Shown here in pieces: positions 8,275-25,587 of a stretch of 35,441 bases of DNA. Origin of the DNA: a virus (lineage: Duplodnaviria; Heunggongvirae; Uroviricota; Caudoviricetes); IMG/VR virus record IMGVR_UViG_2529293216_000013. One strand, given 5' to 3'. Positions within the stretch are counted from its first letter, which is position 1; every line of letters begins with the position of its first letter. The notes beneath the pieces were generated by a model. The model was not told where the DNA came from, did no database searches, and was given only the letters and a program-made list of their open reading frames with translations. Position numbers and translations under genes: made by a program.

Positions 8275-8613
8275 CTATTTCCCTGAATTTACGACGAAAC
8301 TGTTCGAGCGGGCTGAAGCACTCATGCTCATAGCCTTCGCGGAGGTAGATAACCCGTTGTGTTTCCGGTTCCCAACGAATGACTCTGACGGGCACTCCGT
8401 AGTGATCTTTGAACCAGCGGTTAACTTGTCGCAAAGGACTGTCTCCTTTTGCCTGTTGAAATCACCCACAGCCCACTCTGCAAAGCTGTGGGTTACAATT
8501 TCCCTGTCACCTGGTACATTCACTGCATAGCAATACTCCACCTTCGCTTTTCCACCCGGTACAGGAAGTGCAATCAGTTGCGAGCGACGGTAGTGTGTTG
8601 TTAAACTGTTCAT
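8275..8613 (-). CDS. Hypothetical ORF between CII-like and O-like genes; frame ambiguous
   Basis: 112 aa ORF in one frame; a second minus-strand frame (8255..8434) has AAGGAG plus TTG start and a more protein-like product ([58 protein letters not shown]) ending in overlap with the O start. Confidence 0.3.
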
Positions 8614-9161
8614 GCGTTAGTTTCTCCACAGTCACGACACGCCACGGCGCCCGGAGCTGCACACTCGCGGGCGTCATTACTTTCTGAAATGCAAAAAATT
8701 TTGTAGACCAGTGCTGCATGCTCCTGCAGCTTCGAAATTGAGAGGTACAGCTCGTCGTTAATTGCTGTCTTCTCATGCGGTTCCACTACACCGTCTTCAA
8801 TTGCTGAACGAATCTGTTTTGAATAACTGCCGATCTGTTCAATGACCTCCAGCAGGCGTTGGTTGATATCGGCGTTGTCCACATCCTCGACATCAGGAAG
8901 AGACACAAAGACGCCATTTGCAGACTGCGCCACAGCGTCAGCAATGAAGTGAGTTCCACCAGCACGTTGCAAAATCATTGCCCATCCCAGCGGGAAAATC
9001 TGATCGCCATCGGCACGAAGGCGGTTAAATAATGCGTTCTCTGTTACATCCAGCCAGTCAGCAGCTTCAGCGTACCCCCCCGGCAACGCTGCGATAGTTT
9101 TTCTGACAGCTTTCACGTACCACTCAGGCTGTTTTTCTACTTTCCAGTGATGCTTACCCAC
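8610..9161 (-). CDS. CII/YdaT-like prophage regulatory protein (putative)
   Basis: 183 aa; immediately downstream of the Cro-like gene with overlapping start/stop; family assignment from memory only. Confidence 0.4.
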
Positions 9162-9414
9162 GGTTCACCTCCTGTTCCTGTGGTTTAAACCCATTCTGGT
9201 TTTGGCTAGATTGAAAACGTGCCGGATAAAGAATCTGCATTTCGCTGACTTCACCCTTAAAAAAATTGGCTAAACGTTCTGCAAGCTCGATAGATGGAAT
9301 CTGCTCCAGCCTCTCAATACGACTCAACGTCGCTGGATTGACTTGAACACCCGCAGCAACATGCTGCAAAGTGAAACCATGCGCCTTACGCACATTTCGT
9401 AATGGTGATTGCAT
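9154..9414 (-). CDS. Cro-like HTH repressor (XRE family)
   Basis: 86 aa; HTH GFTLQHVAAGVQVNPATLSRIERLEQIPSIELAERLANFF; divergent from cI across an operator-rich 97 bp spacer. Confidence 0.65.
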   Translation of the reverse strand: MQSPLRNVRKAHGFTLQHVAAGVQVNPATLSRIERLEQIPSIELAERLANFFKGEVSEMQILYPARFQSSQNQNGFKPQEQEVNRG

Positions 9415-9424
9415 ACGCCCTCCA

Positions 9425-9495
9425 AATATTGCGCGTTATGCATGTTATTTCACGCAATTATTTTGCGCAAGTTGATTTGCTTATCACGCAATAAA
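9425..9495. promoter_or_regulatory. Right operator/promoter region (OR-like) between cro-like and cI
   Basis: Repeated half-site motifs ATTGCGCG, CACGCAAT (twice) and palindromic TTGCGCAA in the divergent intergenic region. Confidence 0.5.
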
Positions 9496-9511
9496 GAAAT
9501 GTAATAAACGC

Positions 9512-10204
9512 ATGAACATAGGAAACCGAGTCAGACAACTTCGCCAAGCGAAGAACATGAAAATCGCCGATCTCGCTGAAGCGATAGGAGTAGATGCGGC
9601 GAACATCTCGCGCTTAGAAACGGGTAAGCAAAAACAATTTACCGAACAAACACTGAGTAATATTGCCAAGAGCTTAGGTGTTGATATTGCTGATCTCTTT
9701 ACCTCTGCCCACAAAAGTAATACTGTATATAAAAACAGTAATAATGAGGATGTTGCGCAGGTGAAGGATGTGTTCCGTATTGAAATGCTGGATATCAGTG
9801 CCAGTGCGGGAAATGGCCTTATCCAGGGCGGTGATGTCATTGATGTGATTCATGCCATCGAATACAGAACTGATAATGCTGTATCAATGTTCGGCGGACG
9901 ACCAGCCAATCACATCAAAGTTATCAACGTTCGTGGGGACAGTATGTGTCCAACCATTGAGCCAGGAGATCTCATCTTCGTTGATGTCAGCATCAATCAG
10001 TTTGATGGTGATGGTATATATGTCTTTGGTTTTGATGACAAAATATACGTTAAAAGACTTCAAATGATTCCTGACAAACTGCTGGTGATTTCTGATAACC
10101 AGATTTACCGTGAATGGGGAATTACTAGCGAAAACGAACACCGATTCATGGTCTTTGGAAAGGTCTTAATCAGTCAGTCGCAAACCCTTAAGAGACATAA
10201 TTAA
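9512..10204 (+). CDS. cI: CI-type prophage repressor (HTH plus S24 LexA-like autopeptidase domain)
   Basis: 230 aa; N-terminal HTH (MKIADLAEAIGVDAANISRLETGK); C-terminal S24 motifs VRGDSMCPTIEPGDLIFVD and YVKRL (Ser/Lys dyad). Confidence 0.85.
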   Translation: MNIGNRVRQLRQAKNMKIADLAEAIGVDAANISRLETGKQKQFTEQTLSNIAKSLGVDIADLFTSAHKSNTVYKNSNNEDVAQVKDVFRIEMLDISASAGNGLIQGGDVIDVIHAIEYRTDNAVSMFGGRPANHIKVINVRGDSMCPTIEPGDLIFVDVSINQFDGDGIYVFGFDDKIYVKRLQMIPDKLLVISDNQIYREWGITSENEHRFMVFGKVLISQSQTLKRHN

Positions 10205-10223
10205 CCTCAATATCCCATCCATC

Positions 10224-10248
10224 GGCCACCGAAAGGTGGCTTTTTATT
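10224..10248 (+). terminator. Rho-independent terminator downstream of cI
   Basis: GGCCACC-gaaa-GGTGGC hairpin followed by TTTTTATT. Confidence 0.65.
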
Positions 10249-10256
10249 ACCTATAA

Positions 10257-10295
10257 ATTTGCATATCTCGCAAATACCACTTGCATATCTCGCAA
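10257..10295. promoter_or_regulatory. Left operator-like tandem dyads (OL-like)
   Basis: Two copies of TTGCATATCTCGCAA (inverted TTGC...GCAA arms), sharing the TCxCGCAA core with the OR-region sites. Confidence 0.45.
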
Positions 10296-10502
10296 TTTAA
10301 TTTTATCTTTTATTCCAGACCAACTACAGGATTACAACAAAATCTGGTTGCAACACGGTGCATGTGTCGTAAGCAGTCAGTAAATGTCAAAAACGAACAG
10401 GCAGGACGCCCACGAAGTAGCCGCCTGGGGCATATGAAGTCCAGGATGATTCGTTGAGTCATGTTGTGCCACTAGGCACTCATGTTAAAGCAGGTGTATG
10501 AA

Positions 10503-10778
10503 ATGAAAGTCCAGATTTTAAACAATAACTGTGAAGTCGTTTGGTCATACGACATAGCCGCCCCTGTAGATCAGAGCGGCGATAGCTGGACCAATGGGAA
10601 ACATCAGATTATGGCTGGAGTTGTGTTCTCTTTACGCCGTGCTTTAGAACAGGCTGAAGTCTTTCCATCAGACCCTGAATGGAAATGGCCTTTTTCTATT
10701 TGTCCAAATTCGGAGAGTACATTTCAGAAAATTGGTCAGAAAGTCGCACTCGAAGAGCATCAGCCAACTGTTTCCTGA
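10503..10778 (+). CDS. Hypothetical protein downstream of cI (rex-position cargo?)
   Basis: ORF with AGGTG Shine-Dalgarno before ATG at 10503; no recognisable motif; 3' end overlaps a convergent ORF. Confidence 0.3.
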   Translation: MKVQILNNNCEVVWSYDIAAPVDQSGDSWTNGKHQIMAGVVFSLRRALEQAEVFPSDPEWKWPFSICPNSESTFQKIGQKVALEEHQPTVS

Positions 10779-10941
10779 TTTTTTCAGGTAACTCGTCGGC
10801 ATCGCAGAAACAACAACGCTCGATCATGTTGAAAGCCGATTCGTAGAACTGTTTTTGCTGAGTGTCGCTGAGACAGGAAAAGAGCGACGTTACGATGATT
10901 TTATTAATTGCATTATCAAGTTCTTTTTCATCAAAAGTCAT
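10696..10941 (-). CDS. Hypothetical small protein (81 aa)
   Basis: Protein-like composition (MTFDEKELDNAINKII...); convergent 83 bp overlap with the previous ORF, so one of the two may be spurious. Confidence 0.3.
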   Translation of the reverse strand: MTFDEKELDNAINKIIVTSLFSCLSDTQQKQFYESAFNMIERCCFCDADELPEKIRKQLADALRVRLSDQFSEMYSPNLDK

Positions 10942-11442
10942 TTGATTTTCCTTTTATGTATACGGGCTTAAAAGGATACCACCGAGCCTGAAGTGGTGAA
11001 AAGACAGGCACATAACAGCTAAGTATTTTCAACCAGAGAGAATCCTTAGCGTTGTGGTGAATGCGGCTCAGCGCACGCGGGTTAAGGTTGAGGCTGACAG
11101 TCGACCTTCTGTGGATACCCACCCGCCTGGTGTGCAACCTTCGCCAGGCACCGGGAGGCACCCGGCACCACAACTTTATGCTGTGTGTAGTCTTAGCGGT
11201 ACCAGCTTGTACCCTTGCTTCCGGCTGGTACCGTCCTTTTTACAAAACAGAGAAGAGCATCACCGGACGACGGGCTCATAACCCAATCCATCCGGGCGGC
11301 TGCCACCGCAGGTGTATAGCGCGGCGATTTTTTTGATACCGATTTGCATTTCATTTGATACCGCTGAAAAACGCCGATACGCAACTTATTTGATACTAAA
11401 TCGGCGCTTTTCTTTTGAGTTTTAGAATGAGTTTTTAAGCGC

Positions 11443-12180
11443 TCATTCACTCTCTTTCAAACCAGTTTTAACTGTTTGTGGTTTTGGGTAAGGCTGGACT
11501 TTGAATAGCTTTGTGTTGAGGCGTTTTCTGGCCCTCTTGTTCAGAAACCGGATGTAACGAAACTGTCGGAACTTATGAACACTGGCTCTGTCAATATTAG
11601 CCCTCAGATGTTCACCTCGTTGTCCGCCTCGTTTAATGGCATTCCTGCAAATCTCGTGATACCACTCGCCATCAAGTTCATAGAATATTGATTCATGGCT
11701 GCCTACATAATCAAAATTGCTTGCCTGATACACGACACCAAGACAGCCACAACGCTCATCTGCAAACGACTGAACCCACTGTACCTGCGGATAAAGCTGC
11801 CTGATTAGCTTGAGCGCGTAACTGATTGCCCTTGATTCGGAGTTTCTCGGCATACAGTCATGCAGCCATAGCCGGTTAAGCTCCATATATTCTCGGTTCT
11901 GCGTACCCGTTACGACGCGTGCACCACTGTTTGGGTTAAGGGCGTAACCCCATTGCATTACGCCAACAAGTTCCCGTTCTGAAAATATGCCCAGATGAAG
12001 GTAGGAGTTATTTACGAAACGGTGGCTGTAATGTTTATTGACGATGACCAGTCTGGCCAGCCAGCAACTTATTGTCTCAACCCGCAACTCACGGGAGCCA
12101 TAACCAACGATATTGTCGTTATAGCGAATAAGTTCAGGCGTGCTGATGATTCGGGATGTGACTTGCTTTCTGTTCCCCAC
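11443..12180 (-). CDS. mom: Mom-like DNA modification protein (GNAT-fold acyltransferase family), putative
   Basis: 245 aa; GNAT-like C-terminal signature [12 protein letters not shown]; start overlapped by a Com-like zinc-finger gene exactly as in phage Mu com/mom. Confidence 0.5.
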
Positions 12181-12334
12181 GACAGGATTTCCTTGTGTAT
12201 GTGGGGTGCTCTGTGGCGCTCGGAGATGTGATTTGATTGAGGGTTTTACAGCGCGGACATTTTACTTCCAGATAACTGAAACTGGCCCGTGCCAGTAGCT
12301 TATTGCAGTGTCGGCACCGTATGTTTCGATACAT
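12134..12334 (-). CDS. com: Com-like zinc-finger translational activator
   Basis: [34 protein letters not shown]...EHPT resembles Mu Com (IRCKNCNKLL...IRCPRCK...EHPT) as recalled; AGGAGG upstream of the internal ATG; 3' end overlaps mom start. Confidence 0.6.
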
Positions 12335-12364
12335 GACCGCATAACCTCCTGCTTTGTTGTTGAT

Positions 12365-12400
12365 GCCTTTCTCATGCAATCGATCGACAAAAACGATCGA
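12365..12400. promoter_or_regulatory. GATC-rich putative com/mom promoter region
   Basis: Two CGATCG sites (GATC at 12371..12374 and 12384..12387) plus TCGAT repeats within about 30 bp upstream of com. Confidence 0.3.
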
Positions 12401-12448
12401 TTCGATTTGTTTAATTGATACAACAAATAGATTGAAAAGTCATCAACA

Positions 12449-12913
12449 ATGATTCAGGGAGGTGATTATTTACTTAAAGAAAACGAAGAGTTAGGTGGTG
12501 AAAACGATCATAAAATGATCATTTTATTGACTTTTTATACAGTGAAGGTAGGATCACGCGTATATGTAGTATGTTTCAAATCAACAGGATACTACATAAA
12601 AGTGAAACCCAGCATAGCTGGAACTATGCTGGGTCAATCTGTAAAAACTTGCATCAATGCTTTACTTCGAGCTCGTGGCGTATCCTATGATATTCCCCGG
12701 TCTCCTGTAAAGCAGAGATGCATAAAAAGGAGATCTTTATCATGGATGAAAGAGCCTGTTTGCCCTGCCTGTAAGACTCCCTTACAGCTCATCTATCGCC
12801 GTTCTCGATCTCAAAATGGCAAGACATACAAACCCAAAAATGCTTCCTGTTTCAGGATGCTGATATGTCCTGCCTGTTCTCCCAGGAGGGAAAATACACA
12901 AAACGTGCATTAA
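12449..12913 (+). CDS. Hypothetical protein with C-terminal double CPAC zinc-ribbon motif
   Basis: ...VCPACKTPLQ...(26 aa)...ICPACSP; N-terminal part is low-complexity and may not be coding. Confidence 0.25.
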   Translation: MIQGGDYLLKENEELGGENDHKMIILLTFYTVKVGSRVYVVCFKSTGYYIKVKPSIAGTMLGQSVKTCINALLRARGVSYDIPRSPVKQRCIKRRSLSWMKEPVCPACKTPLQLIYRRSRSQNGKTYKPKNASCFRMLICPACSPRRENTQNVH

Positions 12914-12951
12914 CAAACTCACCCGGCAGGGAAACCTGCCGGTCGGTATTG

Positions 12952-13197
12952 TTACATCATAGTACCGTCAGTTCCGGGCTGAACCGGCTCTGGTTGCTCT
13001 ACGGGTTGAGGATCATTTTCCGTGCTGTTTTCAGCCGGAGAACGGCCAACCATTCGGGCCAGCACTTCATCAACATATGCGTCGATTTGTGCCTCAAAAT
13101 CCTTGCGAACCTGCGCCTTCAGCACGCGGTTCACTTCTTCAGAATAAAGTGCCTGTTTGACAAGCTCTTCAGTAACCGTGCCTTTAATCTCTGGCAT
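12952..13197 (-). CDS. Hypothetical acidic small protein (81 aa)
   Basis: AAGGAG Shine-Dalgarno 7 nt before ATG; acidic, Pro/Glu-rich C-terminus. Confidence 0.4.
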   Translation of the reverse strand: MPEIKGTVTEELVKQALYSEEVNRVLKAQVRKDFEAQIDAYVDEVLARMVGRSPAENSTENDPQPVEQPEPVQPGTDGTMM

Positions 13198-13232
13198 GAA
13201 TATTCTCCTTTTGCAGGTATATTGCCCCGTTA

Positions 13233-13415
13233 TCAGAGCGGGGTCGGGTCGTTTGGGGATGACGGTGCCTGTGCTGTTTTACTGAGTTTTTCAGCTGCCG
13301 CATCATCAATTTTACGGCGAATATAATTTCTGATGACCTTATAACCACCGCTCACCAGATATAACGCACTGACCACAGCGCAGAAATAAAGCAGCATTGT
13401 ATGAACGAATGTCAT
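13233..13415 (-). CDS. Hypothetical small membrane protein (60 aa, one TM)
   Basis: Hydrophobic segment MLLYFCAVVSALYLVSGG followed by basic stretch. Confidence 0.35.
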   Translation of the reverse strand: MTFVHTMLLYFCAVVSALYLVSGGYKVIRNYIRRKIDDAAAEKLSKTAQAPSSPNDPTPL

Positions 13416-13561
13416 ATAACCTTACCTTTGATATTGACTACATAATTCGTTATCGGGTAAAAACATCGAAGCGACTGATAACCACTCCTTCGGGAGTATT
13501 TTTATTTTCCTTTATGGGTTAGGTAGCTCCCGCCAGCCATATCATGACCGGCGGGATTTTT

Positions 13562-15601
13562 TTATTCTGTTACCGCTTTTTTCACTTCCACCACAATGCT
13601 GTCAATCAGCACCGGGTAAGTTGCATTTTTTGTGATATCCGTTACGCGGAGTTTGTCCACCGGGAAAGTTCCTACTGGTGACTGCGTCAGGGTAAACGCG
13701 GCACCATCCTGACCATCAATAACCGGAATAACCTGAAGGCTGTTATTTCCTGCAAAACGGAAGGCCAGCGTATGCCATTCATTATCAAATGCACCAAAGG
13801 TTCCCAGTTTCTGGTTATTTGTTGCCACTTTTGCATTGTGGTACATCACATTCAGGTCTTTTGCGTCTGTCTGGATGTAGAACGATGCCAGCAGATTATT
13901 CCCTGCATCCCCTGTCAGGGTGACACCCTGCGGCAGAGAGGAAACCGGCCAGTAAAGCCCCATGACATACTGGTTTGCCACCAGGTCGCCAGGTACTTTA
14001 AAACGACAACTGATTAAACCACCATTTTTCAGCAGTTCAGCACCAGTACCGGCATCATGATCCAGATACCAGGATGATTTACCTGTTTCCTTGGTCAGTT
14101 TCATTGCCTTACCACCTGTGCCTCCTGCATCACTGATAATTTCAGCTTTACCGCCAGCCGGCTCCCAGCCCTGGGCTTTCAGATTTCCTTCTGACTCACT
14201 GACACGATAAGACAGCAGTGTTGTGGTTACTGCTTCAGTTTCTGAAGGTGACGGCACTGGTGCTTCAGTTTCAGAAGATGGAACATCGGCTTTTACTGTG
14301 GTTCGCCCCGCATGAGTCAGAACTGCCGTGGCCAGACGGTCGGAAATAATCCCACGACGTGCCCATGAACTGAAATGGCTGGCCCGGTCCGCAGATGTCC
14401 AGGTGGCGGCACTGTTACGCCACGTTGAGCCGTAATAACCAATGGATTCAATATCCGGGTCTTCTGCCGGATTGTTGGTGGGTACATTCGCGTCATTTTC
14501 ATCTGTCATTAATGGAACGAAATGAATGTTTTTATCTGTTTTGTTTTTGTAGCCGCCATAGATTGCCTGGTATGCCGGTTCATTTTTCTGTTTCCAGAAA
14601 TACGTGGTATCGCCACAAATCCACGGAACGCCAGCAGCACTGCCACCGGTACACTGTTCCGCCTGTTCAGCCAGGTCTGCGCGGAATTTTTCCACCATCG
14701 CCAGAAACAGCGCGGAATGCTCCGTCGGCTTCGCATCAATATCAAACTCGCCCTGCATCCACACCACAGCAAGCAGGCGGTTTTTCGGGTTCTTCGCCAG
14801 TGCCGCTTTTGTCCGGCTGATTAAGTCCTTATACAGCGGCTTATCCACACCCCAGCGGGCTGAGTCCTCTGAAGCACCCGTGCTGTCACTGTACGTGCCG
14901 TCAGCACCCGCCGTGAATGCAGAACCACCACGGCAGCAGGGAACCAGCAGAATCCCCGCATCTGCCGGAATAAACGGCAGCAGTTTTTTGGCAATGTGAA
15001 GCCCCTGACCCACGGTGCCATATTGCCCTTTAGCCACATCCGCTTTCGGGTGATTTTTTCCACTCATATCCTGCACATCATGCAGACAGTGGTCGGCCAG
15101 AATGATGTCGTTATACTGACAGGCTTTACCTCCCGGCGTGACTGTACTGCGACGGGCTAACTGCATAATACGCGGTTCGGGGCGGTCATATGTCTCCGGC
15201 AGTGGCAGACCTTCACCGTAAGCCATACCGTTTGACTGACCAGCAAGAACCACCACGTAATACCAGGAAGGGGAGCTGGAAGCAGTTTCATTTCCTGACG
15301 GACGGGTATGTGTTTCAGCATTATCCCAGTCTGACGGTTCAGCAGTACCGGCAACATCAGCACTTAACGGAATGACCGCACCAATACCCGCTCCGGTAAT
15401 TTCCACACTCGGATCACCGGATACTGGCCTTACCCACAGGCAATCCCGTGTATTAAAACTGATGAGACAGTCAGCAAATGTCATTCCTCCTTTTGTTTCG
15501 GCCGGAGGAAAGGGAGCCTCAAGAAATGCCGCTGTACCACCGGAAACTTTAACAGTAAAGTTTCCGGGCATTGATGATAGTTGAACCCATTTGGACGTCA
15601 T
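13562..15601 (-). CDS. Prophage sialate O-acetylesterase-like protein (NanS-p-like, SASA/SGNH esterase core)
   Basis: 679 aa; motif VVVLAGQSNGMAYGEG (GQSN catalytic Ser motif); size and architecture resemble NanS-p paralogs of E. coli prophages. Confidence 0.65.
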   Translation of the reverse strand: MTSKWVQLSSMPGNFTVKVSGGTAAFLEAPFPPAETKGGMTFADCLISFNTRDCLWVRPVSGDPSVEITGAGIGAVIPLSADVAGTAEPSDWDNAETHTRPSGNETASSSPSWYYVVVLAGQSNGMAYGEGLPLPETYDRPEPRIMQLARRSTVTPGGKACQYNDIILADHCLHDVQDMSGKNHPKADVAKGQYGTVGQGLHIAKKLLPFIPADAGILLVPCCRGGSAFTAGADGTYSDSTGASEDSARWGVDKPLYKDLISRTKAALAKNPKNRLLAVVWMQGEFDIDAKPTEHSALFLAMVEKFRADLAEQAEQCTGGSAAGVPWICGDTTYFWKQKNEPAYQAIYGGYKNKTDKNIHFVPLMTDENDANVPTNNPAEDPDIESIGYYGSTWRNSAATWTSADRASHFSSWARRGIISDRLATAVLTHAGRTTVKADVPSSETEAPVPSPSETEAVTTTLLSYRVSESEGNLKAQGWEPAGGKAEIISDAGGTGGKAMKLTKETGKSSWYLDHDAGTGAELLKNGGLISCRFKVPGDLVANQYVMGLYWPVSSLPQGVTLTGDAGNNLLASFYIQTDAKDLNVMYHNAKVATNNQKLGTFGAFDNEWHTLAFRFAGNNSLQVIPVIDGQDGAAFTLTQSPVGTFPVDKLRVTDITKNATYPVLIDSIVVEVKKAVTE

Positions 15602-15700
15602 AATAATCAGCCTGTTCCTGAATAAACTGAATTATCATATCCACAGACCGATAAACGCCATTTTGCGTTAATTCAGTAAAGGCCCAACAAAGAGAGCGTC

Positions 15701-16261
15701 TTATTTTTCCGAAACGCTCGCAGGATAATAACGATAAAGGGTTGAAAGGCCGATATCAAAAATAAGTGCCACCTGTCTTCGACTGACACCCCCGGCCAGT
15801 AAACGCCCGACCTGCTCGTATTGTTCCTGCGTGAGACGACGGGGTCTGCCGCCGGTTCGTCCCCTTTCACGGGCAGCTGCAAGACCAGCCCGTGTCCGTT
15901 CGACAATTAATTCACGCTCCATTTCTGCCAGCGCACCCATTATGTGAAAAAAGAAGCGCCCCATGGGGGTTGACGTATCAATGTTGTCAGTAAGACTACG
16001 AAAATTTATCCCCTGTTGCTGTAATTCATCTGTCAGCGCAACAAGGTGGCGCATACTGCGCCCCAGCCTGTCCAGTTTCCAGACCATCAGTGTGTCACCG
16101 GGTTTTAGTTTCTTCAGTGCCCGCTTCAGTCCCGGCCGCTGTGTCGTTTTACCACTCATTTTATCTTCAAAAATCTGCTCACATCCTGCACATTCCAGCG
16201 CATTTCTTTGTAAACCTGTGTTCTGGTCATTTGTTGATACGCGTATATAGCCAATCAGCAT
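15701..16261 (-). CDS. pin: Serine recombinase DNA invertase (Pin/Hin/Gin/Cin family), copy 1
   Basis: 186 aa; MLIGYIRVSTNDQNTGLQRNALECAGCEQIFEDK...GRSMRHL...C-terminal HTH; close match to e14 Pin as recalled. Confidence 0.9.
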   Translation of the reverse strand: MLIGYIRVSTNDQNTGLQRNALECAGCEQIFEDKMSGKTTQRPGLKRALKKLKPGDTLMVWKLDRLGRSMRHLVALTDELQQQGINFRSLTDNIDTSTPMGRFFFHIMGALAEMERELIVERTRAGLAAARERGRTGGRPRRLTQEQYEQVGRLLAGGVSRRQVALIFDIGLSTLYRYYPASVSEK

Positions 16262-16687
16262 GTATTTACCTTCCTTAAAAAGAGGTGGAAAGGCCTTTTA
16301 AAGCAGATATACGGCATCCCTGAAACCTTCGGTTTACGGGATACTGTAAACAGGGCCGCGAATGCCCTGCCATCGAACGGAGCGGCTGTTGCAGCGAATA
16401 AACTCGCCACTCCAAGAAATATTAATGGTGTCCCATTTGACGGAACGCAGGATATAAATATTACATCGGGGATGACGCAGTCTGTGGCTGACTCACGTTA
16501 TGTTCAAAGCATTCGAAGAGGTTCAAGGTCAACGATTGGAATGCAATATAATATTTTTGAGGTTCCTGACGGATGCGTACTTACAGGGCTTGATGTCGCT
16601 GGTGATGGTAATGCAACGGTAACCGCATATTATCGACCTGTTCAGTTTCTGATAGATGGTTCGTGGAAAACAGCTTCCAGCGCATAA
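16262..16687 (+). CDS. Tail fibre variable C-terminal segment (Sv), 5'-truncated (no constant part)
   Basis: Open frame from 16238 without start codon; ...LATPRNINGVPFDGTQDINITSGMTQSVADSRYVQ...AYYRPVQFLIDGSWKTASSA. Confidence 0.55.
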   Translation, partial: VFTFLKKRWKGLLKQIYGIPETFGLRDTVNRAANALPSNGAAVAANKLATPRNINGVPFDGTQDINITSGMTQSVADSRYVQSIRRGSRSTIGMQYNIFEVPDGCVLTGLDVAGDGNATVTAYYRPVQFLIDGSWKTASSA

Positions 16688-17715
16688 AAGTGCAGTAGTT
16701 CAAAAAACAGATTATCTGAATAAATATATGATGATTTTGTCTTTTCAACAAAAACAAGGTGAAATAATGGAGCTTATTAACGTAAAACGATATTACCCGG
16801 AACACAAACCCTATGGTGAGGATGTTCAGTATTTCCAGAGTGAGGACGGAAGGGATTTTTATGAATCTATCCCGCTTTTCACAAAGAAATACAAACTCTG
16901 TATTTCGCCTGTAACGGGTATTATCTGCTCTGTTGCTGAAGATGTCTCTGCTTTATATCCGGCAGGTTTTACTGTTGTTGAAGTGGACGAACTGCCGGAA
17001 GGTGTGAATATTGACGGTAACTGGCAGTTTTCTGATGGCCTGATATCAAAGGTGCCGGTAAACTGGAAGACGGTTGCTGAAAAGCGCCGCTCATCGCTGC
17101 TCCAGGAAGCCAACGAAACTGTGGATGACTGGAAAACGGAATTAAAACTGGACATGATTAGCGATGAAAATAAATTACAGCTGACGCGCTGGATGGCGTA
17201 TATCCGACAGCTTAAAGAAATGCACTTTAATGATATTGCCAGTGAGGGGCATTACCAGGCGATTCCCTGGCCGGAAAAACCGGAATAATTCAGAGGGTGC
17301 ATTCAGCACCCTTTTCTGTGGTTTACACTGAACTTACCGTTCTCCAGGCATTATTAATATAAATCTGAACCGGGCGATAATAGACCCCACCGATATTGTC
17401 CGCAGACCGGGAGCCGGTTTCCTGCACGTTAATTCCGGAAAGCATACAACCGGAAGGTGCGCTGTAATTCCATGACATTTCATTGCCTCCGGGTGAATGA
17501 TAGCTCTGTGCTCCAAGCTGAACATTCTGTACATACCGGCCATCTGCGGTTGACTGCGTCATTCCTGACGTGATGTTGATATCCAGCGTTCCGTCAAAAG
17601 GAACACCATTAATATTTCTTGGGGTGGCGAGTCTGTTTGCTGCCACGGCGGTTCCACCCGATGGCAGGGCATCAGCAGCCTTATTTACCGTTTCCCGTAA
17701 ACCAACGTTTAAGAA
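16318..17715. mobile_element. Invertible tail-fibre segment (G/P-segment-like) between inverted crossover sites
   Basis: gix/cix-like sites AAACCTTCGGTTTACGGGA near 16320..16343 and inverted partial copy near 17692..17712; both lie inside tail-fibre reading frames at the conserved ...GLR(D/E)TVN(R/K)AA(N/D)ALP... junction. Confidence 0.55.
16767..17288 (+). CDS. Tail fibre assembly protein (Tfa/U-like)
   Basis: Start MELINVKRYYPEHKP with Shine-Dalgarno; C-terminus ...LTRWMAYIRQLKEMHFNDIASEGHYQAIPWPEKPE typical of Tfa chaperones. Confidence 0.7.
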   Translation: MELINVKRYYPEHKPYGEDVQYFQSEDGRDFYESIPLFTKKYKLCISPVTGIICSVAEDVSALYPAGFTVVEVDELPEGVNIDGNWQFSDGLISKVPVNWKTVAEKRRSSLLQEANETVDDWKTELKLDMISDENKLQLTRWMAYIRQLKEMHFNDIASEGHYQAIPWPEKPE

Positions 17716-17745
17716 AATGCAGAGATTATGGCTAACTGGCATCAT
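17323..17745 (-). CDS. Alternative tail fibre variable C-terminal segment (Sv')
   Basis: Shares ...LATPRNINGVPFDGTLDINITSGMTQSTADGRYVQ... with Sv, then diverges; ends ...VYYRPVQIYINNAWRTVSSV. Confidence 0.55.
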   Translation of the reverse strand: MMPVSHNLCIFLNVGLRETVNKAADALPSGGTAVAANRLATPRNINGVPFDGTLDINITSGMTQSTADGRYVQNVQLGAQSYHSPGGNEMSWNYSAPSGCMLSGINVQETGSRSADNIGGVYYRPVQIYINNAWRTVSSV

Positions 17746-17772
17746 CCCCGGTTTTTACTCAGGGGAATGCTC

Positions 17773-18327
17773 ATGCTTATTGGCTATGTCCGCGTATCAA
17801 CAAATAACCAGAATACGGAATTACAGCGTAATGCGCTGGAGTGTGCAGGATGTGAGCTGATTTTTGAAGACAAGATAAGCGGTACAAAGTCCGACAGACC
17901 AGGACTGAAAAAGCTGCTCAGGACATTATCGGCAGGTGACACGCTGGTGGTCTGGAAACTGGACCGACTGGGGCGCAGTATGCGGCATCTTGTCGTGCTG
18001 GTGGAGGAGTTGCGCGAACGAGGCATCAACTTTCGTAGTCTGACGGATTCAATTGATACCAGTACCCCAATGGGGCGCTTTTTCTTTCATGTGATGGGTG
18101 CCCTGGCTGAAATGGAGCGTGAACTGATTGTTGAACGAACAAAAGCTGGACTGGAAGCAGCTCGCGCACAGGGACGAATTGGTGGACGTCGTCCCAAACT
18201 TACACCAGAACAATGGGCGCAGGCCGGGCGATTAATTGCATCAGGCGTTCCTCGCCAAAAGGTGGCGATCATCTATGATGTTGGTATATCGACACTGTAT
18301 AAGAAGTTTCCGGTCGGAGATAAATGA
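17773..18327 (+). CDS. pin: Serine recombinase DNA invertase (Pin family), copy 2
   Basis: Start MLIGYVRVSTNNQNTELQRNALECAGCELIFEDK...; roughly 80% identical to copy 1, opposite orientation. Confidence 0.9.
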   Translation: MLIGYVRVSTNNQNTELQRNALECAGCELIFEDKISGTKSDRPGLKKLLRTLSAGDTLVVWKLDRLGRSMRHLVVLVEELRERGINFRSLTDSIDTSTPMGRFFFHVMGALAEMERELIVERTKAGLEAARAQGRIGGRRPKLTPEQWAQAGRLIASGVPRQKVAIIYDVGISTLYKKFPVGDK

Positions 18328-18387
18328 AACCGTAGCACGTCGTATGCAAGAAGATCGTGCTGCGGTTTATGCTTATCACTTAAAGAC

Positions 18388-19257
<870 letters not shown>

Positions 19258-19337
19258 CTAAGTCTTTGAATTTACATAGTACAAAAAAGATACTTTTCCT
19301 CATAATGTGAATTAATTTTATGTTTCGTTTGATGATT

Positions 19338-19403
19338 GGACCGGTCTCGAAAACCGGAGTAGGGGCAACTCTACCGGGGGGGCAAATCCCCCTCTCTCCG
19401 CCA
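19338..19403 (+). tRNA. Degenerate 3' fragment of tRNA-Ser (serU-like, anticodon CGA); probable prophage att scar, not a functional tRNA
   Basis: GGACCGGTCTCGAAAACCGGAGTAGGGGCAACTCTACCGGGGGGGCAAATCCCCCTCTCTCCGCCA matches the tRNA-Ser(CGA) 3' two-thirds as recalled, with a damaged T-loop (GGGCAAATCC instead of GGTTCAAATCC); 5' acceptor/D-arm absent. Confidence 0.6.
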
Positions 19404-19976
19404 CTTTATCAATGACTTATCTCCCGACTTCCCGCCTTGCTTTTCCTAAACAGAACAATCGTAGAATATTCTTGAAGGGTTAGATCGTCACTGTTTTCTG
19501 TTCGATACTGTGACATTCAGCACTTGATTCGCTATGGATCTGACAGGAAGGTTTCGAGCGAAAATCTGCAGTTATTCAGTCGTTTTCTTATCGGTCACCA
19601 TTATTCTTTTAGACATTGATCCTACAAAGCTGCCGCAAAGTTGGTGGTGGGAACTGAAGTTGCGTAGAGAAGGGGTCAATACCCGGAGGCAAACATGGGC
19701 TGGCAAAAGTGTAGCGGTATTAGGCGCAGCTATTTAGCCTAGTTATGTTTTATGAAAACTTGATATCATATAAGTGTCTTACTTATTGGCTGTAAATAAG
19801 TTTTTCCTAAGGAATTGTTTCTTGAGTATCATTTGTAACTGTAACGGAATTTATAATCCTTTGCTTTATTGTTACGGTATTTTTTATCACACCCTATTTT
19901 TAGTGGTTTTTTATACTGAAGTTTGGCAAAGTGAACTTTATATACATATACTTCATCCTGGTTTCAGTTAAATTGG

Positions 19977-20729
19977 GTGGATGATATGGCAACTACATGT
20001 TCAGTTATATTGATTTTGGAGTCCTTTGATGTTTATTTCGGAAAAGAGAGTGTGTTTCTGGAGAGAGGTTCATCTGTACTTGTCGACTCTAGCTCTAGAG
20101 ATTTTTTCCTGACATATCCTGAAAGAGTGATAGTGGCGGATTTTGGCGCTGAGTTTATTAGTCGCTATTTGAAAGCTAATAACTTAAGGGATATTTCTGA
20201 TTGTAGGGAATATCCATCTTATTTAAAAATAAACTTTGCTGACTTCAGTTTAATTAAAGGATTAATTAGTTGGGCTAATCACTGTGCTGAATACATAGAA
20301 ATTTTTGATGAGTCTATTGCTTTTACATGTCTCTCTGCATTTTCTTCTGAAAAACAATTTGGAGTATTTCTGTTTGGATGTTTGAAAAGCACAGGGGCTA
20401 AAGTTAAAACGATTATTCATACGGATTTATCTGCACCATGGCGTCTTAAGGATATATCATCAAGATTATATCTCAGCGAAAGTTTACTAAAGAGGAAATT
20501 GAAAGAAGAGGGGGTATCATTCAGTAAGATCATACTTGATGAGAGGATGCAAATGGCTGAATATTTACTCAGCACTCGTTGTTATCCTATTAGTAAAGTA
20601 GCTAAGGTCTGTGGTTATGCCAGTGTCTCATACTTTACTTATGTATTTAGACGTTATTTTGGTGTTTCTCCAAGTCAATACTCTCAGAGGAGTTCAGAAA
20701 GTAAAATTCTTACTCACCAGGGAATCTGA
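19977..20729 (+). CDS. AraC-family transcriptional regulator (AppY-like, AT-rich)
   Basis: 250 aa; C-terminal dual HTH WRLKDISSRLYLSESLLKRKLKEEGVSFSKIILDERMQMAEYLL...VAKVCGYASVSYFTYVFRRYFGVSPSQY resembles AppY as recalled. Confidence 0.7.
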   Translation: MDDMATTCSVILILESFDVYFGKESVFLERGSSVLVDSSSRDFFLTYPERVIVADFGAEFISRYLKANNLRDISDCREYPSYLKINFADFSLIKGLISWANHCAEYIEIFDESIAFTCLSAFSSEKQFGVFLFGCLKSTGAKVKTIIHTDLSAPWRLKDISSRLYLSESLLKRKLKEEGVSFSKIILDERMQMAEYLLSTRCYPISKVAKVCGYASVSYFTYVFRRYFGVSPSQYSQRSSESKILTHQGI

Positions 20730-20770
20730 TCATTGTTCTTGCCCCCTTATTTCCAGACAGGGGGTGTATC

Positions 20771-21214
20771 TTAAGTTAACGTTACCCGCTGACGTCGATA
20801 TTCTCGCGGAGAGCGATAACCCAACGCACTGTGCGGATGGTTTTCATTGTAATGTTCGATCGCCACTGCAAGATTATGCAATGCCGTTCTTACATTCGGT
20901 TTCGGCATGAACGCGATATAGTCTTCCTTCATCGTTTTCACGAACCTTTCTGCAATTCCATTACTCTGAGGACTGCTGATTGCCGTTGTGCAGGGCTCCA
21001 GATTCAACTCTCTGGCGAACTGCCGTGTTTCATGCGCTCTATACGCTGAACCGTTATCTGTCAGCCACTGGATGGACTGTTCCGGTACTTTATCGCCAAA
21101 GCGTTTTTCTATCGCTCCTAACATGACATCCTGCACTGTCGCTTTATCGTAACCTCCCGTGCTTGCGGCCCAGTCTATGGCTTCACGATCGCAACAGTCC
21201 AGGGCGATTCATCT
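20771..21214 (-). mobile_element. IS3-family (IS2-like) transposase remnant: C-terminal DDE-domain portion only
   Basis: ...[50 protein letters not shown]...[14 protein letters not shown] matches IS2 OrfB C-terminus; no ATG, frame closed upstream by a stop near 21215. Confidence 0.7.
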
Positions 21215-21483
21215 GGGCCAATCCTCGCTCATAACAGGCATTCACTTCAGTCATGGCAGAAAGGTATGCATGCTGGAGAAGTCGTGAAAGAAAAGAAGAC
21301 TGCTGCGCCGTTTGTCGTCACGTTTATCTTCATTGGCTATGCAAGTCGTAATACAAGGTGGGACAAAACTGAGACACATAAGGCCTCGCAATGGCTTGCA
21401 AGGCTTTACATGTTTTGATGTGGTGGGACGTGTGAGCGCAGTGTTGATGGGGTAATGCTTTGAATTAGAAGCGGATTCTTATA

Positions 21484-21529
21484 ATTCGTAATGCGAAGGT
21501 CGTAGGTTCGACTCCTATTATCGGCACCA
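21484..21529 (+). tRNA. 3' fragment (about 46 nt) of tRNA-Thr (thrW-like); attL core of the P4-like element
   Basis: ATTCGTAATGCGAAGGTCGTAGGTTCGACTCCTATTATCGGCACCA matches the thrW 3' half as recalled; upstream sequence does not match the tRNA 5' half. Confidence 0.65.
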
Positions 21530-21691
21530 TCTCAACTTCCTCAAACGTCCGTATTAGTCCATAAAATCTCTGATTTATAACATTTTTTATTCTTTTAAGT
21601 CCATAGTAGTCCGTAACCATCCAGTAGAATCCGGTACTGAATGTGTATAGGATTGTGTATATGTTCCTGTTCGGTCTGGATTCCTATACAC

Positions 21692-22873
21692 ATGCCTTTA
21701 AACGATATGCAGATTCGCCGCGCTAAGCCTGAAGCTAAAGCCTATACATTTGGAGATGGGCTAGGGTTGTCATTACTTATAGAACCTAATGGAAGCAAGA
21801 GTTGGCGGTTCCGCTATCGCTATGCCGGCAAACCCAAAATGATCTCGCTTGGTGTTTACCCAACGATCACCCTTGCCGATGCTCGTTCCCGTCGTGATGA
21901 AGCTCGAAAACTTGTGGCAGAAGGAAAGAACCCTAGTGAGGTTCGAAAAGAGCAAAAGCTAGCTATGCAAACAGAGTCAGAGAACGCCTTCGAAAAGATA
22001 GCCAGAGAGTGGCATCAACTTAAATCTGCTAAATGGTCGGCGGGATATGCATCAGACATCATGGAAGCGTTTAAGAACGACATTTTTCCTTATGTCGGAA
22101 CAAGGCCTGTGGGAGAGATTAAACCGCTAGAGCTGCTGAACGTTCTGCGTAAAATTGAGAAACGTGGTGCGTTGGAGAAAATGCGCAAAGTGCGGCAGCG
22201 TTGCTCCGAAGTGTTTCGCTACGCAATTGCAACGGGTAGGGCGGAGTACAATCCTGCGGCTGATCTCTCCAGCGCTCTCGAAGTACACCAATCCAATCAT
22301 TTCCCATTCCTAAAAGCTGATGAGATACCTGATTTTCTACGTGCCTTAGAGGGTTACTCCGGGAGTAAGCTTGTCCAGATAGCCACGAAATTACTGATGA
22401 TTACGGGTGTGAGAACCATCGAATTACGCGCGGCATTATGGCAAGAATTTGATCTGGATAACGCTATTTGGGAAATTCCTGCTGAAAGGATGAAAATGCG
22501 TAGGCCACATCTTGTGCCCTTATCATCTCAAGCGGTAGATTTACTCAATGAACTCAAGATCATGACAGGGAACTATCGTTATGTTTTTCCAGGGCGGAAC
22601 GATCCGAATAGGCCAATGAGCGAAGCGAGTATAAATCAAGCCATTAAGCGTATTGGGTATGGAGGAAAAGTCACTGGACATGGTTTTCGTCATACCCTTT
22701 CTACAATCCTGCATGAGCAAGGTTTTGAGAGTGCTTGGATTGAAATCCAGTTGGCTCATGTAGATAAAAATTCTATTAGGGGGACTTATAACCATGCTCA
22801 ATATTTTAGTGGAAGGAAGTCTATGATGGACTGGTACAGTAATTTGATATTTGAAAGACTAAAAAGGAGTTAA
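21692..22873 (+). CDS. int: P4-type tyrosine integrase
   Basis: N-terminus MPLNDMQIRRAKPEAKAYTFGDGLGLSLLIEPNGSKSWRFRYRYAGK...; C-terminal catalytic region HGFRHT...; adjacent to tRNA fragment. Confidence 0.85.
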   Translation: MPLNDMQIRRAKPEAKAYTFGDGLGLSLLIEPNGSKSWRFRYRYAGKPKMISLGVYPTITLADARSRRDEARKLVAEGKNPSEVRKEQKLAMQTESENAFEKIAREWHQLKSAKWSAGYASDIMEAFKNDIFPYVGTRPVGEIKPLELLNVLRKIEKRGALEKMRKVRQRCSEVFRYAIATGRAEYNPAADLSSALEVHQSNHFPFLKADEIPDFLRALEGYSGSKLVQIATKLLMITGVRTIELRAALWQEFDLDNAIWEIPAERMKMRRPHLVPLSSQAVDLLNELKIMTGNYRYVFPGRNDPNRPMSEASINQAIKRIGYGGKVTGHGFRHTLSTILHEQGFESAWIEIQLAHVDKNSIRGTYNHAQYFSGRKSMMDWYSNLIFERLKRS

Positions 22874-22876
22874 TTT

Positions 22877-23293
22877 GTGTCTCAACCACTTTCGGAAATA
22901 TTGACATGGGATGATGAACAATGGGAGGTATTTGTCCATGATTGGCTTATTGTCTGTAAATCAGATGATTACCCGTGGAGCGAACGTTTGGGAGGAGCTG
23001 GAGATAAAGGTAGAGACGTTGTTGGATATAAATCGGATCCTAACGTAGAAGGTTATTCTTGGGATAATTATCAATGCAAACTGTACAAAAAAAGTTTAGG
23101 GTTCTCTGATGTTGTAGTTGAGTTTGGAAAACTTATCTATTTTACTCTGAATGGTGATTATCCCATCCCTCAGAAGTACTTTTTTGTGGCACCCTATGAT
23201 TTATCTACTACATTTTCTAATTTATTGAAAAATAAAAACGAGCTTAAAAAAGCAGTCCTTGATTCATGGGATTCAGCAATTTCAAAAAAATAA
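22877..23293 (+). CDS. Mrr-like PD-(D/E)xK nuclease domain protein, 5' segment of candidate defence effector (LmuA-like); frame breaks in A7 tract
   Basis: GTG start with AAAAAGGAG Shine-Dalgarno 4 nt after int stop; motif GGAGDKGRDVVGY...YQCKLYKK resembles Mrr catalytic core GDGGIDG...QCKRYK; about 28% GC. Confidence 0.5.
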   Translation: MSQPLSEILTWDDEQWEVFVHDWLIVCKSDDYPWSERLGGAGDKGRDVVGYKSDPNVEGYSWDNYQCKLYKKSLGFSDVVVEFGKLIYFTLNGDYPIPQKYFFVAPYDLSTTFSNLLKNKNELKKAVLDSWDSAISKK

Positions 23294-23883
23294 CTAAAAA
23301 GATTGATATTCCATTAGATGATGAAATAAAAAAATATATTGAGGATTTTGATTTTAGTATTTTTTACTCTCTACCCTTATCATTGATTTTAAATGATATT
23401 GCAAATACACACCTTTATTTTAAGTACTTTAACGAGCTGTATGTCGTGAGAATCCCTCCAAATGAAATTCCAACATACAATTCAAAAAAAGAGTCTGTAT
23501 ATGTTAATGCACTGCTTCAAGCCTATTCAGAGCATGGAAATAAAACTTATAGTTCTTTCTTAGAGCTTGATGATCCATACAGACGACACTTTAATAATAG
23601 TAGAAATGATTTTTATTTTGCATCTTCGCTTGAGGTTTTTGTCCGCGAAGTATTTAAAGATGATGTATTCAAAGCATTGAAATGTTACATTTCATCTTCA
23701 ATTGAACCCGTCTTTTATGAAGACCATAATTATGCATTTATTAGGTGTAATGCAGTCTTGAAGCAGGCTGTTCTGACACCAATTGCACATTCAGTACTAT
23801 CAAAAATATGTGAAGCAAATGATAAAAAAGGAATATGCCATCATTTGGTTAATGATGGTGAAGTAATTTGGACGGTGAGATAA
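23266..23883 (+). CDS. 3' segment of the same candidate effector gene (C-terminal domain, function unknown)
   Basis: Frame is +1 relative to previous ORF and fuses with it if the A7 tract at 23284..23290 is read as A8 (...DSWDSAISKKITKKIDIPLDDEIKK...). Confidence 0.45.
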   Translation: MGFSNFKKITKKIDIPLDDEIKKYIEDFDFSIFYSLPLSLILNDIANTHLYFKYFNELYVVRIPPNEIPTYNSKKESVYVNALLQAYSEHGNKTYSSFLELDDPYRRHFNNSRNDFYFASSLEVFVREVFKDDVFKALKCYISSSIEPVFYEDHNYAFIRCNAVLKQAVLTPIAHSVLSKICEANDKKGICHHLVNDGEVIWTVR

Positions 23884-24341
23884 TGGTTAGAATTTATAAT
23901 TCAAGTTTAGAAGTGGCATGTCGAATGGCGAAAGTGCTCGTCGCTATTTATCCTTCTTCATTAAGCCTTGAACGGCTTATTTGTTTTGATTTTATTTTAG
24001 TAAATCTTAAGGATTTTTTACCTGAAGAGATTAGTCTTCATCCTCCAATACCCCGTAGAGATGCTCAGTTAGCCCTAAAACGAGAGATTGTTTTAGAATC
24101 ATTGGCTTTGTTGCAAGGCTATGAACTAGCCTCAAAAATTTATACACATCGTGGTTTTGTATATAAAGCTTCTGAAAAAACATATGCATTTACAAATTCT
24201 CTACATAATGAATATGTTGCGCAGATGGAGCATAATATAAATTTGGTGGTTAAGTTATATAGTGATATTCCTGATGAGCAGTTGCAATCAATTATAAAAA
24301 ATAAAATTGGCAAATATGATATGGAATTTAATTATGAATGA
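23883..24341 (+). CDS. Small middle component of candidate defence operon (LmuC-like position)
   Basis: ATG overlaps upstream stop (TAATG); 3' end overlaps next gene start (ATGAATGA); AT-rich; no recognisable motif. Confidence 0.45.
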   Translation: MVRIYNSSLEVACRMAKVLVAIYPSSLSLERLICFDFILVNLKDFLPEEISLHPPIPRRDAQLALKREIVLESLALLQGYELASKIYTHRGFVYKASEKTYAFTNSLHNEYVAQMEHNINLVVKLYSDIPDEQLQSIIKNKIGKYDMEFNYE

Positions 24342-24966
24342 CAATTTTTTTACGTTCAGAAAAATAAAGGTAACCGGATTCAATAAATTAGATGCTATAA
24401 TTGAATTTGGTTCTAAATTGACTATTTTATATGGTGGTTCTGACTCTGGAAAAACATACATATATTATTTGATTCGATATTTATTAGGGAGTGAAAAACT
24501 AAAAAATAAAGATATCGATCATGCTCAAGGTTATGATTTAGCCTATCTGGAATTTAATTTTCAAGGTAGGGTAATGACAATTGAGAGGTCTCTTCAGGAT
24601 AGCGCCCATTACAGATTATATGATTCGAGCATTGAAAATGTTAGTGAAGCTAATCTGTTGATGGTTTTTTCCAAAAGTGCTTCGTCTAAAAAGAGTTTTT
24701 CATCATACTTTTATGGTAGGTTGAATTTCAAAGAGGCTAAAGTAAGAACAAACTTAAGTAATACTCTTCATAAATTTAATCTTAATAATGTTTTTGAATT
24801 TTTTTGTATTGATGAATTAAGAGTGTTAACTGAGAAGTCGTTAATTCTTTCTGATATTCCTAGCGAGGAGACAAAAAGAAAGTCTGAATTTAAATTCCTT
24901 TTAACTCAGAGAGATGATACTAACTCCTTAGCAGAAAAACCAAATAAAAAAGCAAGATATTTTTAA
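24334..24966 (+). CDS. SMC/Rad50-like ABC ATPase, N-terminal head segment with Walker A (LmuB-like)
   Basis: FRKIKVTGFNKLDAIIEFGSKLTILYGGSDSGKTYIYYLIRYLLG (Walker A GGSDSGKT); ends at in-frame TAA 24964..24966, after which the same frame stays open. Confidence 0.5.
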   Translation: MNDNFFTFRKIKVTGFNKLDAIIEFGSKLTILYGGSDSGKTYIYYLIRYLLGSEKLKNKDIDHAQGYDLAYLEFNFQGRVMTIERSLQDSAHYRLYDSSIENVSEANLLMVFSKSASSKKSFSSYFYGRLNFKEAKVRTNLSNTLHKFNLNNVFEFFCIDELRVLTEKSLILSDIPSEETKRKSEFKFLLTQRDDTNSLAEKPNKKARYF

Positions 24967-24996
24967 AAAAATCAAATTGCAAATATTTATGAGGAA

Positions 24997-25587
24997 TTGA
25001 AAGCGCAATTAATTTATCCTGAATATGATCAAGTCATTGTTTCAAGAGAACTTGAGAAAGTAGAGCAAGATATTGAATCATCGAAAGATATATTGAAAGG
25101 TATTGTTGATGCACTTGATGATAAGAAGCAATTATTAAAAGAGTTAAGTGATGAATTATATTCAATCAGTGACAGGGAAAAATACTTATCATTACTCATT
25201 GAAAGATTTAGTCTTCTTAAAGACCAATACTTTATAGATCTACAAAGAATAGATGTTGTATCACAGGCGAATTTCTATTTAAATAATTTTGCAGATATTT
25301 ATTGTGAGTTCTGTAATACACCGCAAAAAAAAGAAAATGAAATATCATATGATGATTGTTTTTTGTCGTGTAATGCAGAAAAATTGAAAATCAAAAGCCA
25401 GCTGAAAGGATTAATTGAATCAATCGGATCTAATGTTCGCGAACATGAATTAATTATGTTAAGAAAAAATGATGTTAATGAAATTTATCAATCAGAAAAA
25501 AGTGATTTTAAGACGTTAGAAGATAAAAATATAAAACAATACATTCATCTCTTGAATCACTTTATGAATATAAAGACAATCTTTTAA
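24997..25587 (+). CDS. Coiled-coil segment of the ATPase with CxxC hook-like motif (same frame as previous segment, no ATG)
   Basis: Heptad-rich sequence; YCEFCNTPQKK...C...C near the middle; frame continuous with 24334..24966 apart from one TAA. Confidence 0.45.
   Translation: MKAQLIYPEYDQVIVSRELEKVEQDIESSKDILKGIVDALDDKKQLLKELSDELYSISDREKYLSLLIERFSLLKDQYFIDLQRIDVVSQANFYLNNFADIYCEFCNTPQKKENEISYDDCFLSCNAEKLKIKSQLKGLIESIGSNVREHELIMLRKNDVNEIYQSEKSDFKTLEDKNIKQYIHLLNHFMNIKTIF

Follow-up and report, generated by a model that had tools for sequence, protein, structure and literature searches.

This study concerns a defense operon in a 35,441-nucleotide stretch of DNA from a Caudoviricetes virus (IMG/VR record IMGVR_UViG_2529293216_000013), hereafter the window, whose positions are used throughout and on whose plus strand the features described lie unless noted otherwise. 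On the evidence of its protein families, the operon is a type II ("short") Lamassu, or ABC-3C, antiphage system with the gene order lmuA-lmuC-lmuB; the three genes are codirectional and overlapping. Both large genes are broken in the window, lmuA at one site and lmuB at two, and these breaks are very probably genuine mutations. The first-pass annotation of this DNA had read the two large genes as the effector and the ATPase of a candidate defense system, an assignment that our Pfam and PADLOC matches bear out.

The first gene, lmuA, starts with a GTG, and its 5' fragment (22877 to 23293) spans 138 codons with an N-terminal nuclease-like domain before a premature TAA (23291 to 23293), as seen in the list of open reading frames (ORFs) and the homolog alignment. 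The 3' part (23291 to 23883) continues in the -1 frame, where an ORF is annotated at 23266 to 23883, and contains an ABC-3C CTD6 domain (Pfam PF20282, E = 2e-29). The uninterrupted lmuC (23883 to 24341) encodes 152 amino acids (aa) and matches ABC-3C middle component 2 (MC2) above the gathering score (PF20288, E = 5e-30), as well as the PADLOC LmuC model (E = 3e-36). The third gene, lmuB (24334 to 26153), is a pseudogene of an SMC/Rad50-like ABC ATPase that now lies in three ORFs (24334 to 24966, 24997 to 25587, and 25587 to 26153), with a Walker A motif (GGSDSGKT) in the first, a CxxC motif in the middle, and ...VVLDSPL... in the last; the two cysteines, C324 and C327, are invariant in the homolog alignment. 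Each repaired Lamassu protein gives a single unbroken PADLOC match: LmuA model PDLC03852 covers the repaired protein over model positions 10 to 333 of 336 (E = 8e-89), and LmuB model PDLC03863 covers the repaired 606-aa protein over positions 3 to 608 of 610 (E = 6e-118). These full-length LmuA and LmuB matches hold for the reconstructed sequences, whereas lmuB as it stands is in three pieces.

The N-terminal domain of LmuA is probably an Mrr-like PD-(D/E)xK nuclease, judging from the annotation of its homologs. The motifs GAGDKGRD...YQCK (GDxGxD and QCK) are invariant across the homolog alignment, and Mrr_cat (PF04471) was found in three LmuA homologs (P0080, P0140, and P0157); the domain of the window itself had no Pfam match, even at E ≤ 10. 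A search of solved structures by sequence recovered no match for LmuA or LmuB, an NCBIfam search recovered none, and our protein collection held no close (>90%) intact LmuA or LmuB. Scanning genome contigs with the repaired LmuA recovered only one relative, at 32% identity.

Three lesions relative to intact orthologs

Intact orthologous operons occur in Proteus mirabilis (L003/L004; 89% nucleotide identity) and Pantoea alhagi (CP019706.1; 79% nucleotide identity), and they allowed the comparison with orthologous loci that the first-pass annotation had proposed as a check. All three genes are uninterrupted in these operons, encoding LmuA of 335 aa, LmuC of 152 aa, and LmuB of 606 aa, the last with 87% (Proteus) and 75% (Pantoea) amino acid identity. 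Both orthologous operons are exactly 3,279 nucleotides (nt) long versus 3,277 nt in the window, and the window differs from them in length by single bases at two places only, 23284 to 23290 and 25525 to 25529. In the NCBI records of the Proteus and Pantoea loci, the intact lmuA is annotated with a length of just 145 or 201 aa, the GTG start apparently having been missed.

The first lesion, in the ortholog alignment, is an A7 tract in lmuA (23284 to 23290) with one base fewer than the intact frame requires. The window reads TTTC-AAAAAAA-TAAC at this site, and, as already recognized from the sequence alone, the tract breaks the effector frame: the upstream ORF (22877 to 23293) ends in TAA directly after it, with the rest of the coding sequence in the -1 frame as far as 23883. 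Inserting one base yields a 335-aa LmuA reading ...AISKKITKKIDIPLDDEIKK..., with the repair junction ...AISKKITKKIDIPLD..., and this product is colinear with the intact 335-aa orthologs and with 22 further homologs (24 homologs in all), so that the proposed fusion of the two effector ORFs by one added A is confirmed. The tract itself is interrupted in the orthologs, which carry TCC AAT AAA ATA or TCA AAG AAA ATA (AATAAAA or AAGAAAA).

The second lesion is a TAA nonsense codon in lmuB (24964 to 24966; context TTTTTAAAAAAA) that lies within T5A7 and truncates LmuB after 210 residues. The corresponding codons are TTT TTA AAA in Proteus and TTT CTG AAA in Pantoea, a Leu is present at this position in all aligned LmuB homologs, and two Escherichia coli O55:H7 strains, DEC5B and RM12579, which are the closest relatives that we found, have a T at 24965 and an intact Leu codon (T6A6). 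By this comparison, the stop is a TTA-to-TAA transversion (T to A at 24965) that converted T6A6 to T5A7, and not the result of slippage; the A7 at this site came about incidentally through that change. The first-pass annotation had correctly placed the TAA inside T5A7 in the ATPase gene, but it took T4A8 as the original reading, which is refuted by the T6A6 or Leu codon of the orthologs and the O55:H7 strains. A T4A8 repair would place Lys where every aligned homolog has Leu. The shared A7-for-A8 pattern that had been noted at the lmuA and lmuB sites is thus a coincidence, since the second A7 arose by substitution; such runs are common in this operon, which is 69% A+T and has eight A/T runs of at least 7 within 3.3 kb.

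The stop had also been described as the single in-frame interruption of the ATPase, but the frame breaks again near 25525 to 25529, a third lesion that was absent from the earlier annotation. Alignment with the Proteus ortholog places here a 1-bp deletion that puts the last third of lmuB out of frame: the window has an A5 run (GAT-AAAAA-TAT) versus A6 in Proteus (GGT-AAAAAA-TAT), and Pantoea has no A run (CTGAAA). When the TAA is removed from lmuB, the frame still stops at 25585 to 25587, and the last 188 codons (25587 to 26153) are in another frame. An A4 run at 25533 to 25536 was considered as the site of this frameshift and was ruled out by the ortholog alignment.

Broken alleles across E. 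coli genomes

The operon is 100% identical to positions 311992 to 315268 of E. coli O157:H7 Sakai and to EDL933, and we found it in 310 complete E. coli records from 309 genomes, all at ≥99% identity and many at 100%; wherever a serotype is given among these records, it is O157:H7 or O55:H7. Many assemblies that were deposited separately (e.g., Sakai, EDL933, and Xuzhou21) are 100% identical over the entire 3,277-bp operon. At the level of single sites, all 309 complete records that contain the lmuA A7 region (Sakai and EDL933 among them) agree over the surrounding 91 nt, and identity holds for the 63 nt around the TAA in 296 of 307 and for the 61 nt around the third lesion in 306 of 309. The count for the first site comes from a 91-nt query; BLAST queries of 61 to 63 nt for this site and for a T6A6 version of the second matched nothing, probably owing to low-complexity masking that left no 28-mer seed. 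A ranked search of the 310 records with a fully repaired operon returned none above the all-broken allele (6,037 bits over a 3,277-nt span), and no record with any of the three sites restored was found among them. There were 312 matching places in all, one of which is on a plasmid-classed record, and one genome has two places. One of these places, in strain F3113, holds only 314 bp from the operon's 3' end.

These results bear directly on the explanation toward which the first-pass annotation leaned, namely, that the organism has intact genes and that the assembly undercalled A8 as A7 at both noted sites. Both sites do lie in A/T runs, and error-prone long-read assemblies (ATCC 43888 and an IMG/VR contig, both discussed below) have indels in such runs. 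However, hundreds of complete genomes, each deposited separately, have the same sequence, the first site is invariant in every record that contains it, the second site departs from its ancestral state by substitution rather than by length, a third lesion exists, and the Sakai RefSeq annotation already lists lmuB (ECs_0293) as a pseudogene. Homopolymer miscalls are therefore refuted as the explanation, and their remaining probability is negligible.

We also searched for an 8-base version of the first site outside complete genomes. A pattern scan of metagenomes for any such site recovered only two unrelated loci, and the same scan of IMG/VR recovered one related contig (L020; IMGVR_UViG_2923272612_000005), which contains an Sp2-like element without window positions 26398 to 30314 (delta, psu, sid, and a regulatory region).

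Order and continuation of decay

The two O55:H7 strains, which are 99.7 to 99.8% identical to the window over the operon, both carry the lmuA A7 and the lmuB A5, so that the first and third lesions either predate the split of O55:H7 and O157:H7 or arrived with the element. The O157:H7 strains that we examined have the nonsense codon and the two O55:H7 strains lack it, which makes an origin on the O157:H7 branch most likely. Branch-specific ratios of nonsynonymous to synonymous substitution (dN/dS) were 0.07 to 0.13 on the O157 branch, the same as on the Proteus branch, a pattern indicating that most of the divergence built up while the genes were still under selection and that the death of the operon is likely recent.

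Decay continued in several forms after these lesions. An A8 run within the dead lmuB (25325 to 25332) is A7 in strains EC4115 and 28RC1 in the strain alignment, and this change is a later, lineage-specific decay step; it may account for the operons that are one base shorter in about one-quarter of the sampled records, and the A8/A7 difference may be usable as a lineage marker. Individual strains have further single-A changes at 25463 and 25491 to 25496. In three related O157:H7 strains (M1300706002, 6535NalR, and 6535WT), the IS3-family insertion sequence IS1203 lies within the first lmuB fragment; its site in NZ_CP089270.1 (positions 2240 to 3453 of the locus) corresponds to about window position 24813. 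Finally, SRR7251010 has a 670-bp deletion of window positions 24296 to 24965 between AAAAAAT(A/C)AAATTG repeats, and the resulting in-frame fusion of lmuC with the middle lmuB fragment encodes a 344-aa protein (P0027).

Such variation in run length invites the view that the A runs are contingency tracts that switch a costly defense on and off by replication slippage, as the first-pass annotation had also suggested. The first and third lesions are indeed 1-bp changes at A runs, lmuB A-run lengths differ between lineages at 25325, 25463, and 25496, and Lamassu is toxic when overexpressed. Yet no ON allele exists among the 310 records and the lmuA tract is invariant in length, the variable lmuB runs add frameshifts without restoring the frame, and the interrupted tracts of the orthologs (AATAAAA and AAGAAAA) leave no conserved switch tract. 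Moreover, switching on would require two slippage events and the reversion of a nonsense codon, which slippage cannot provide. Phase variation is accordingly unsupported by these data, and we consider it extremely improbable.

Genomic setting in prophage Sp2

The operon lies between the integrase gene and delta/psu/sid of an element annotated in Sakai as "prophage Sp2, P4-like phage," with int, ogr/delta, psu, sid, and primase among its annotated genes. The interval from int to psu/delta is the defense cargo slot of P4-like satellites (PMC13586616), and this is where the operon is found. In the window, the Sakai and EDL933 annotations and the ORF list identify intS, the P4-type tyrosine integrase gene of Sp2, at 21692 to 22873, and lmuA starts 3 nt downstream of the intS stop. 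On the other side, the annotated P4 core genes delta/ogr (26563 to 26835), psu (26841 to 27392), and sid (27389 to 28141) lie on the minus strand (26563 to 28141 overall). The orthologous locus of Pantoea alhagi has the same P4-like order, int-lmuACB-ogr/delta-psu-sid, and is located beside proBA.

Colinearity between the window and Sakai is lost upstream of about 17.7 kb. Positions 17684 to 19500 are about 94% identical to the pin/tail fiber region of Sakai prophage Sp1, positions 1 to 17683 do not align at all to that part of Sakai, and positions 13000 to 17709 are 100% identical to tail fiber/invertase regions of other lambdoid prophages in O26, O103, and O157 strains. The arrangement of the window across 13000 to 21600 is absent from all complete E. 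coli genomes, which suggests prophage-prophage recombination near the invertible tail fiber segment adjoining Sp2.

DISCUSSION

In this study, we characterized a Lamassu operon that occupies the cargo slot of prophage Sp2 and, in our judgment very probably, has decayed there stepwise as a pseudogene through three genuine and fixed lesions. The first-pass annotation had listed real inactivating mutations among its three readings, and this reading stands, the lesions being fixed in the records; its count of two lesions becomes three, and the second proved to be a substitution.

Several observations weigh against this account. The ancestral state of the first site could be either A8, shortened by slippage, or an A3-N-A4 tract that lost its non-A base. 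Eleven records differ in the region of the second site, and those inspected are ATCC 43888 and the two O55:H7 strains. ATCC 43888 (NZ_CP041623.1) carries 19 indels of one base each within the 3.3-kb operon, with nearly every neighboring gene flagged as frameshifted, and its assembly is unsuited to homopolymer comparisons. The related IMG/VR contig L020 has A8 at the first site and A6 at the third; both frameshift sites are among its four lengthened runs, a coincidence with a chance of about 0.006 if 45 runs of at least 5 are equally error prone. The contig has roughly 25 further homopolymer indels within the 3.3-kb operon, keeps the TAA at the second site, and shows O55-like single-nucleotide polymorphisms. 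This contig is either a noisy assembly or a distinct lineage and cannot be trusted either way, and we left it unused as evidence for an A8 allele.

A further point of this kind is that low-level recoding might act at the lmuA A7, where -1 ribosomal frameshifting or transcriptional slippage would produce some full-length LmuA. The tract presents A_AAA_AAA (23284 to 23290) in the X_XXY_YYZ register with zero-frame codons TCA AAA AAA TAA, a -1 shift would produce precisely the ...SKKITKK... of the A8-repaired protein, and the tract is invariant in the 309 records. However, three other A7 runs of the operon (23087, 23328, and 23484) are likewise unchanged in five other aligned strains, and there is no stimulatory structure downstream: the 80 nt from 23291 to 23370 have a minimum free energy of -5.9 kcal/mol (z = +1.0), and 174 of 200 shuffles of this segment fold at least as well. 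In the orthologs, 335 codons form one ORF that lacks a slippery run, and the partner protein LmuB is ruined by a nonsense codon and by a frameshift at a nonslippery site, such that no functional complex would result. For these reasons, recoding at this tract appears very unlikely.

The consequences of fixed, genuine lesions can be framed by what is known of intact systems. Cryo-electron microscopy has shown that an LmuB dimer and LmuC hold one LmuA monomer inactive and that the sensing of DNA ends or of phage replication leads to LmuA release, tetramer formation, DNA cleavage, and aborted infection (PMC12663957; bioRxiv 10.1101/2025.06.23.660979). The same work reports that Lamassu is toxic on overexpression and that intact systems strongly restrict lambda-type phage and respond to both phage and plasmid DNA (PMC12663957; bioRxiv 10.1101/2025.06.23.660979). 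In the Sp2 copy, the loss of 1 bp in or at the lmuA A run would separate the nuclease domain from the CTD6 docking/oligomerization domain, the TTA-to-TAA substitution would cut LmuB short, and the A6-to-A5 change would frameshift its C-terminal ATPase half. LmuB works only when a coiled coil joins the N- and C-terminal halves of its head, and so it is likely that no functional Lamassu complex can form, and the gene cluster would persist as neutral debris.

The Lamassu family is well described, the lmuB pseudogene was already flagged in the Sakai RefSeq record, and no new mechanism is presented here. Our findings nevertheless have practical implications for how this locus is read. RefSeq annotation of the operon is inconsistent: Sakai flags only the lmuB pseudogene, while genomes annotated by the Prokaryotic Genome Annotation Pipeline list two lmuA and three lmuB pieces as normal coding sequences with the product names "hypothetical protein" and "AAA family ATPase." Catalogues of defense systems should not count O157:H7 or O55:H7 as Lamassu positive. 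In addition, the decay series, which runs from two frameshifts and a nonsense codon to later indels, an insertion sequence, and a deletion, could provide lineage markers.

The O157:H7 lineage carries many lambdoid prophages and a large plasmid. Loss of Lamassu might have been adaptive rather than neutral, with silencing of the system a precondition for accumulating these elements; we think this unlikely, although if true it would represent a clear counterexample to the reported rule that defenses in P4 hotspots are swapped before they are inactivated. In a weaker variant, the retained A_AAA_AAA-TAA site may still yield traces of full-length LmuA.

Among the closest known systems are type II Lamassu operons such as DdmABC (LmuACB) of Vibrio cholerae, with which the window operon shares three codirectional, overlapping genes, an LmuA effector with a CTD6 domain, an LmuC that corresponds to MC2, and an SMC/Rad50-like LmuB ATPase about 600 aa long, whose Walker A and conserved CxxC are accompanied by a C-terminal head motif, VLDSPL; a deviant Walker B of LmuB is described in the structural papers (PMC12663957; bioRxiv 10.1101/2025.06.23.660979). 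The DdmABC effector is a Cap4 nuclease, whereas that of the Sp2 operon is probably Mrr-like, judging from homolog annotation, and unlike DdmABC the Sp2 copy is inactivated by three lesions. The operon resembles contingency loci in having frameshifts at A runs in potentially costly genes, but it differs from them in showing no lmuA tract polymorphism, no ON alleles, and several independent lesions, one of them a substitution, in place of a single reversible tract. Lastly, as in the hotspots of P4-like satellites, a defense system occupies the slot between the integrase gene and psu/delta. Defense pseudogenes have been reported to be rare in these hotspots, where defenses are swapped before inactivation (PMC13586616); in contrast, the Sp2 system was inactivated in place and has been retained in all 310 matching records, where it is still decaying. 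The Sp2 locus is thus a documented exception to the rarity of defense pseudogenes in P4 hotspots.

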